DNA of 64,000 nucleotides from the NCBI RefSeq assembly GCF_003334765.1, contig NZ_QOWT01000004.1, one strand, 5' to 3'. This document shows positions 25,123-25,199 of this stretch, in pieces. The translations under genes and the position numbers were made by a program. This DNA is from Escherichia coli (GTDB taxonomy: Bacteria; Pseudomonadota; Gammaproteobacteria; Enterobacterales; Enterobacteriaceae). The notes beneath the pieces are model-generated. The model made no database searches and was not told the origin of the DNA. It worked only from the letters and a program-made list of their open reading frames with translations. Position 1 is the stretch's first letter, and every line of letters begins with the position of its first letter.

Positions 25123-25199
25123 TTTCGCTTTAAAACATATCATGAAACTGGGTATGTTTTGTCTGCCTGCTCTGGGATCGCTGGGGCGGGCATTTTTTT
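25123..25199 (+). ncRNA. flgO: Candidate flgL 3'UTR-derived sRNA (FlgO-like), ending at the flgL terminator
   Basis: A terminator-bounded ~77-nt segment follows the flgL stop; a sigma-28-dependent sRNA FlgO from the flgL 3'UTR is reported in the literature as I recall it; boundaries are inferred. Confidence 0.35.
25164..25199 (+). terminator. Rho-independent terminator of flgKL
   Basis: Stem TGCCTGC / GCGGGCA (one G-U pair) with a 14-nt loop, followed by TTTTTTT at 25193-25199. Confidence 0.65.

Follow-up and report, generated by a model that had tools for sequence, protein, structure and literature searches.

The flgL 3′ untranslated region of Escherichia coli: identification with the known Hfq-bound small RNA FlgO, and conservation of its hairpins

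The flagellar gene flgL of Escherichia coli is followed, a short distance after its stop codon, by an intrinsic terminator, which raises the question whether the segment in between is simply the end of a messenger RNA or the gene of a small RNA (sRNA), and what such an RNA might do. Here we report an analysis of this segment in a stretch of 64,000 nucleotides of E. coli DNA (contig NZ_QOWT01000004.1 of assembly GCF_003334765.1), which is called the window throughout and to which positions refer unless another record is named. A first-pass annotation, made from the sequence alone, had marked positions 25123-25199 as a candidate sRNA derived from the flgL 3′ untranslated region (3′UTR) and had suggested FlgO as its name. 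We are highly confident that positions 25122-25199 (+) are the flgO gene, whose product is a known Hfq-bound E. coli sRNA of 78 nt from the flgL 3′UTR. FlgO is already published and annotated, and is therefore not a new discovery.

The genes of the parental transcript and the published oligonucleotides for FlgO (Melamed et al., eLife 2023) lie in the window as follows:

22514..24157 (+): flgK coding sequence, which opens the parental flgKL mRNA (open reading frame and annotation)
24169..25122 (+): flgL coding sequence, 317 aa, with the TAA stop codon at 25120-25122 (open reading frame and annotation)
25122-25144 (+): primer SM041, 5′-phosphorylated, for cloning; its first base is +1
25218-25240 (-): primer SM042, reverse cloning primer, downstream of the terminator
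25150-25177 (-): probe SM032, Northern probe, inside FlgO

Positions 24136-25536 are identical to positions 1140000-1141400 of E. coli K-12 MG1655 (NC_000913.3; 1401 nt, 0 mismatches), and window coordinates are obtained from those of NC_000913.3 by subtracting 1,115,864. This curated record annotates flgL (b1083) at 1140033..1140986 and an ncRNA gene flgO (b4826, 'small RNA FlgO') at 1140986..1141063, which corresponds to 25122..25199 of the window. The two sequences agree at 78/78 nt, and the coordinates given for FlgO by Bar et al. (2021) are the same as those of the annotation. FlgO begins with the final A of the flgL stop codon (25122) and its annotated 3′ end is the last U of the terminator tail (25199), so that the gene lies on the flgL strand and extends from that codon through the intrinsic terminator of flgL. 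In sequence, position, strand and both ends it is identical to FlgO of E. coli K-12 MG1655 (PMC10578931), with no difference. SM041, SM042 and SM032 each have one exact match within the window, with 0 expected.

The proposed name is thus upheld by sequence identity, by the published coordinates and by the published primers and probe, and alignment to the published FlgO sequence places it here and not elsewhere. The proposed boundaries were right at the 3′ end, which is exact; the published and annotated 5′ end lies 1 nt further upstream, at 25122. That the segment is an sRNA was also right, and calling it a candidate understated the case, FlgO being named and annotated.

FlgO is present in exactly one copy in 5426/5426 complete E. 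coli genomes (at least 90% identity), and the flgL-FlgO region was matched in all of them. Five of the matches to this region sit on E. coli records labelled as plasmids, which may be mis-assigned replicons. In RefSeq E. coli genomes annotated with PGAP (e.g. NZ_CP032667.1), the feature at the FlgO match is flgL or 'none', and flgO is annotated only in NC_000913.3. A scan of positions 23500-29500 with the covariance models of Rfam 15 (E ≤ 1) placed no family over FlgO (25122-25199), which appears to be without an Rfam model. With neither a PGAP annotation nor an Rfam 15 model, FlgO will keep being flagged as unannotated by automated pipelines. In the same scan, rne5 alone reached its gathering score nearby, and two matches at chance level fell on the rne terminator. 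The match to rne5 (RF00040), the element of the RNase E 5′UTR that serves autoregulation, is full-length and lies, as expected, upstream of rne at 28528-28864 (-), with 260 bits against a gathering score of 180 and E = 1.4e-81.

The 3′ end of FlgO is set by the first of two terminators in the intergenic region:

25164..25199 (+): flgL intrinsic terminator; G+C-rich 12-bp stem 25164-25175/25181-25192, loop GGAUC, U7 at 25193-25199
25263..25298 (-): rne terminator, outside FlgO and given as context only; stem 25298..25275, T-rich tail to about 25263

The terminator scan and the predicted fold both confirm the well-formed intrinsic terminator that the first-pass annotation had placed after flgL at 25164-25199, with both ends exact. 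Its stem has 12 pairs, 7 of them G-C, with a loop of 5 nt and T7 directly after it, and it ranks first in strength among the 11 terminator-like sites found in 24000-26500, where shuffled sequences give 2.8 ± 1.6. It is the 3′ end of both the flgKL mRNA and FlgO, and its hairpin with the U7 tail is expected to be the module bound by the proximal face of Hfq. The separate terminator of the convergent rne gene (25318..28503, -), which had been placed at 25262-25297, was recovered to within 1 nt at about 25263-25298 (-); its fold has -21.3 kcal/mol compared with -9.77 ± 2.51 for shuffled sequences (z = -4.59).

Between the two terminators lies an A+T-rich spacer of about 63 nt (25200-25262). It is conserved in only part of Escherichia; the reference genomes L002, L004 and L005 differ from K-12 there, and for 691/5426 E. 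coli genomes the match to a 501-nt query across the spacer region extends over less than 80% of its length. The convergent arrangement of flgL and rne is kept in Salmonella enterica and E. fergusonii, and in S. bongori an MFS transporter gene lies downstream of FlgO instead.

The predicted fold of FlgO consists of a 9-nt tail, a first hairpin (SL1), a 2-nt linker, the terminator hairpin and U7:

25122..25130 (+): single-stranded 5′ tail, AUUUCGCUU
25131..25161 (+): SL1 hairpin, 11-bp stem 25131-25141/25151-25161
25142-25150 (+): SL1 apical loop, 9 nt, AUGAAACUG
25162-25163 (+): linker, 2 nt
25164-25192 (+): terminator hairpin
25193-25199 (+): U7 tail

The folding energy of 25122-25199 is -28.5 kcal/mol, compared with -16.05 ± 3.18 for dinucleotide shuffles (z = -3.92), none of which reached it (0/200). 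To ask which parts are maintained, FlgL was scanned in one genome per species, which gave 69 loci, and 60 distinct Enterobacteriaceae flgL 3′ regions were aligned over the whole of FlgO. They come from Escherichia, Citrobacter, Atlantibacter, Kluyvera, Enterobacter, Leclercia, Lelliottia, Cedecea, Kosakonia, Trabulsiella, Franconibacter, Silvania and other genera. The consensus structure of the 60 sequences has the same two hairpins, with standard pairs in 97.3% of the cells. Changes on both sides of a pair are found in 13/18 consensus pairs (SL1 8/9, terminator 5/9), and 0/500 shuffles reach the observed values; when the 3′ partners were slid by 1-3 columns as a control, pairing fell to 26-56%. 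Both the SL1 helix and the terminator helix covary across the 60 Enterobacteriaceae sequences.

The unpaired parts of the alignment evolve very differently, as a comparison with the adjacent coding sequence shows:

SL1 loop, consensus UUGAAACUG: mean top-residue frequency 0.87, entropy 0.55 bits
5′ tail: mean top-residue frequency 0.54, entropy 1.44 bits
four-fold degenerate sites in the last 60 codons of flgL: mean top-residue frequency 0.505, entropy 1.58 bits

Conservation is far higher in the SL1 apical loop (UGAAACUG) than in either the 5′ tail or the four-fold sites. Set against the four-fold sites, these values indicate that purifying selection acts on the loop sequence and that the 5′ tail changes at close to the neutral rate. 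The spacing between the flgL stop codon and SL1 also varies: K-12 has 9 nt, most genera have about 14-25 nt, and Intestinirhabdus alba has about 70 nt, with an insertion of ~60 nt between the two that includes a G+C-rich, hairpin-like segment (L024:2452-2592). In S. enterica and S. bongori the architecture is kept, with one substitution in the loop (ACGAAACUG) and a different terminator loop. Pseudocitrobacter and Hafnia lack the FlgO element downstream of flgL.

In public assemblies, an enterobacterial flgL-FlgO region also turns up in two records that seem to be contaminated or mislabelled. One of them, NZ_VHIM01000044.1 (280 bp, labelled Arthrobacter agilis), agrees with E. coli K-12 at 133/133 downstream bases; the other is CACSKA010000011.1 (labelled Chryseobacterium sp. 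18061).

FlgO is strongly co-immunoprecipitated with Hfq, ranking fourth in enrichment, yet its set of RIL-seq partners is the smallest, with low odds ratios and only gatC found in four conditions, and its overexpression leaves flagella number and motility unchanged (Melamed et al. 2023; PMC10578931). No later functional study of FlgO was found in the literature searched, which reaches to mid-2026. From the alignment, we put forward tentatively that FlgO may act through the near-invariant SL1 loop (core GAAACUG), held on its covarying stem, and not through its 5′ end. Just as tentatively, the loop would in that case be a conserved recognition surface, either for a partner RNA through loop-mediated pairing or for a protein.

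Pairing of FlgO was explored by duplex prediction. With gatC, its top RIL-seq partner, RNAduplex gives a 21-nt duplex of -23.0 kcal/mol that involves the SL1 loop and the 3′ arm. This value is equalled by 14/300 shuffles of the query and by 2/86 segments of the window, one of which is the antisense of FlgO itself; the duplex with the loop only (-16.4 kcal/mol) is matched or beaten by 9/86 segments. We regard the predicted FlgO-gatC pairing as no better than marginal. The duplex predicted with the 5′UTR of ptsG, also a RIL-seq partner (start codon at 42005), is at chance, with 67-350/500 shuffles as good, and the exact complement of the loop, CCAGTTTCA, has no other occurrence in the window. 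These duplex computations speak neither for base pairing by FlgO nor against it.

In the rne 5′UTR, the segment AAUACCCAGUCUGUUUCUUUGAUAA at 28677-28701 (-) shows partial complementarity to the loop and arms of SL1 (-17.0 kcal/mol). Six other matches in the window are at least as good, and the RIL-seq partners of FlgO do not include rne. A CsrA-type GGA motif in the terminator loop of E. coli (GGAUC) was considered and dropped, as that loop is not conserved.

Melamed et al. suggested that FlgO may titrate Hfq or recruit other proteins (PMC10578931). That FlgO is mainly a decoy or sponge that occupies Hfq, or a recruiter of protein to Hfq, and not a base-pairing regulator is a possible but doubtful explanation. 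It would agree with the very high Hfq enrichment combined with few partners and with expression timed with the late flagellar genes (PMC10578931), and the conserved loop could be a protein-recognition element; an effective titrator of Hfq would, however, be expected to have an overexpression phenotype.

It is rather unlikely, in our judgement, that FlgO is a functionless product of decay, namely the last ~78 nt of the flgKL mRNA, shielded by the terminator hairpin and Hfq. Such a fragment would be stable because its exposure to 3′ exonucleases is blocked, and the lack of an overexpression phenotype and the very small RIL-seq target set (PMC10578931) are as expected for it. So are the predicted pairings near chance and the low sRNA prediction scores of 0.07-0.15 (Bar et al. 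2021). This explanation fits poorly with the covarying second hairpin and the constrained loop: a terminator has no need of a second hairpin, yet 8/9 SL1 pairs show compensatory changes over about 50 species, and the SL1 loop is far better conserved than the neutral four-fold sites next to it.

Comparison with other systems places FlgO among the sRNAs released from 3′UTRs and also sets it apart. In Salmonella, the flg operon cDNAs recovered by Hfq co-immunoprecipitation were almost all derived from the 80 nt that follow the flgL stop codon (Sittka 2008; PMC2515195). The S. enterica ortholog has the same two-hairpin layout after flgL with convergent rne downstream; it differs in its longer 5′ tail of unrelated sequence (14 nt before SL1), in its terminator loop and in the SL1 loop, which is ACGAAACUG and thus 1 nt different from AUGAAACUG of E. 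coli. FliX, from the fliC 3′UTR, resembles FlgO: it too depends on sigma-28, is processed from the mRNA of a late flagellar gene, is bound by Hfq and ends at the mRNA terminator (PMC10578931). FliX has validated targets (fliC and coding sequences of the S10 operon) and reduces flagella number and motility, whereas FlgO has no validated target and no phenotype (PMC10578931). FlgO would have in common with CpxQ, SroC and MalH, which are processed (type II) Hfq sRNAs from 3′UTRs, that RNase E frees it close to or at the stop codon; like them it also uses the parental terminator. CpxQ and MalH have conserved pairing regions and validated targets; FlgO is unlike them in that its tail evolves at about the neutral rate, its conserved part is an apical loop and no target has been validated.

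FlgO belongs to a set of four UTR-derived sRNAs that depend on sigma-28; Northern blots show it as a doublet of ~75 nt that is strongly reduced in a ΔfliA mutant (PMC10578931), and the predicted length of 78 nt agrees with the size of the doublet. It is lost from libraries treated with 5′-P-dependent exonuclease (Melamed et al. 2023; PMC10578931), which indicates that it is processed. The flgL 3′UTR has been named in the literature among the candidate 3′UTR sRNAs released by RNase E, and TIER-seq located in the Salmonella flgL an RNase E site (Chao et al. 2017) that was found again in E. coli (PMC11347164). The window contains a promoter-like site upstream of the parental genes:

22454..22480 (+): sigma-28 promoter-like site TCAAGTCC-N11-GCCGATAA, 34 nt upstream of the flgK start codon

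This site has 3 mismatches to TAAAGTTT-N11-GCCGATAA, with a perfect -10 element; the scan of the window gave 3 sites where 0.6 were expected. It is likely to be the class-3 promoter from which the FlgO-containing flgKL transcript is made, and the published fliA dependence leads us to infer that it drives FlgO. No sigma-28-like site was found inside flgL at up to 3 mismatches, which fits processing of FlgO and not its independent transcription.

The best sigma-28 match of the window lies elsewhere, at 14308-14334 (-), with the sequence TAAAGATT-N11-GCCGATAA and 1 mismatch. It is located just after an open reading frame at 14340..14999 (-) and just upstream of one of 97 aa at 13971..14264 (-), which we take from its sequence to be the anti-sigma factor FlgM, and it is probably the class-3 flgMN promoter.

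Synthesis of FlgO would begin with the flgKL mRNA, made from the sigma-28 class-3 promoter upstream of flgK according to the literature, and read-through of the long transcript of the flgB operon is probably a further source. The transcript ends at the intrinsic terminator at 25164-25199, as the sequence and the annotated 3′ end show. Cleavage by RNase E at the flgL stop codon would then leave an RNA with a 5′ monophosphate, which would be bound and stabilised by Hfq, both steps being taken from the literature. A scan for RN|WU motifs of the RNase E type found matches at 25122|25123 (AA|UUU) and 25128|25129. The first of these cut positions is 1 nt downstream of the annotated 5′ end of FlgO; the cut that would give the annotated end (25121/25122) does not fit RN|WU, as it has U at position -2. 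A second cleavage at AA|UUU (25122|25123), adjacent to the annotated 5′ end, may be the source of the doublet. FlgO would occupy Hfq while the late flagellar genes are switched on.

It is highly improbable that FlgO is instead a primary transcript started from a separate promoter within the last part of flgL (a type I 3′UTR sRNA), and this explanation is largely refuted. Sigma-70-like hexamers are present at 25096-25123 (TTGTCG-16-AATAAT), but they match at only 9/12 positions, and chance alone would give 1.7 ± 1.4 such sites in this region. Their -10 element ends at 25123, from which transcription would start near 25130 and not at 25122. The depletion of FlgO by 5′-P-dependent exonuclease together with its fliA dependence (PMC10578931) and the lack of a sigma-28-like site in the interior of flgL also argue against it.

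A small protein read from the ATG in the SL1 loop at 25142 (MKLGMFCLPALGSLGRAFFCLFCIVG), which opens a hydrophobic frame of 26 codons, is next to inconceivable and was rejected, as the frame has no stop codon before 25199 and closes only beyond the terminator, is not preceded by a Shine-Dalgarno sequence and is not conserved: many species have T, G or C in place of the A of the ATG, and the frame is disrupted by 1-nt indels in the SL1 3′ arm.

As FlgO was already known, its interest as a discovery is low, and the residual value of this analysis is the constraint on the SL1 loop, which offers a specific and cheap target for mutagenesis. Covariation of the SL1 stem, constraint on the loop and neutral drift of the tail together direct such mutagenesis to positions 25142-25150 and not to the 5′ end. 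If FlgO acts through this loop, a function would be given to one of the E. coli RNAs most enriched on Hfq, which yet appears to be 'targetless'.
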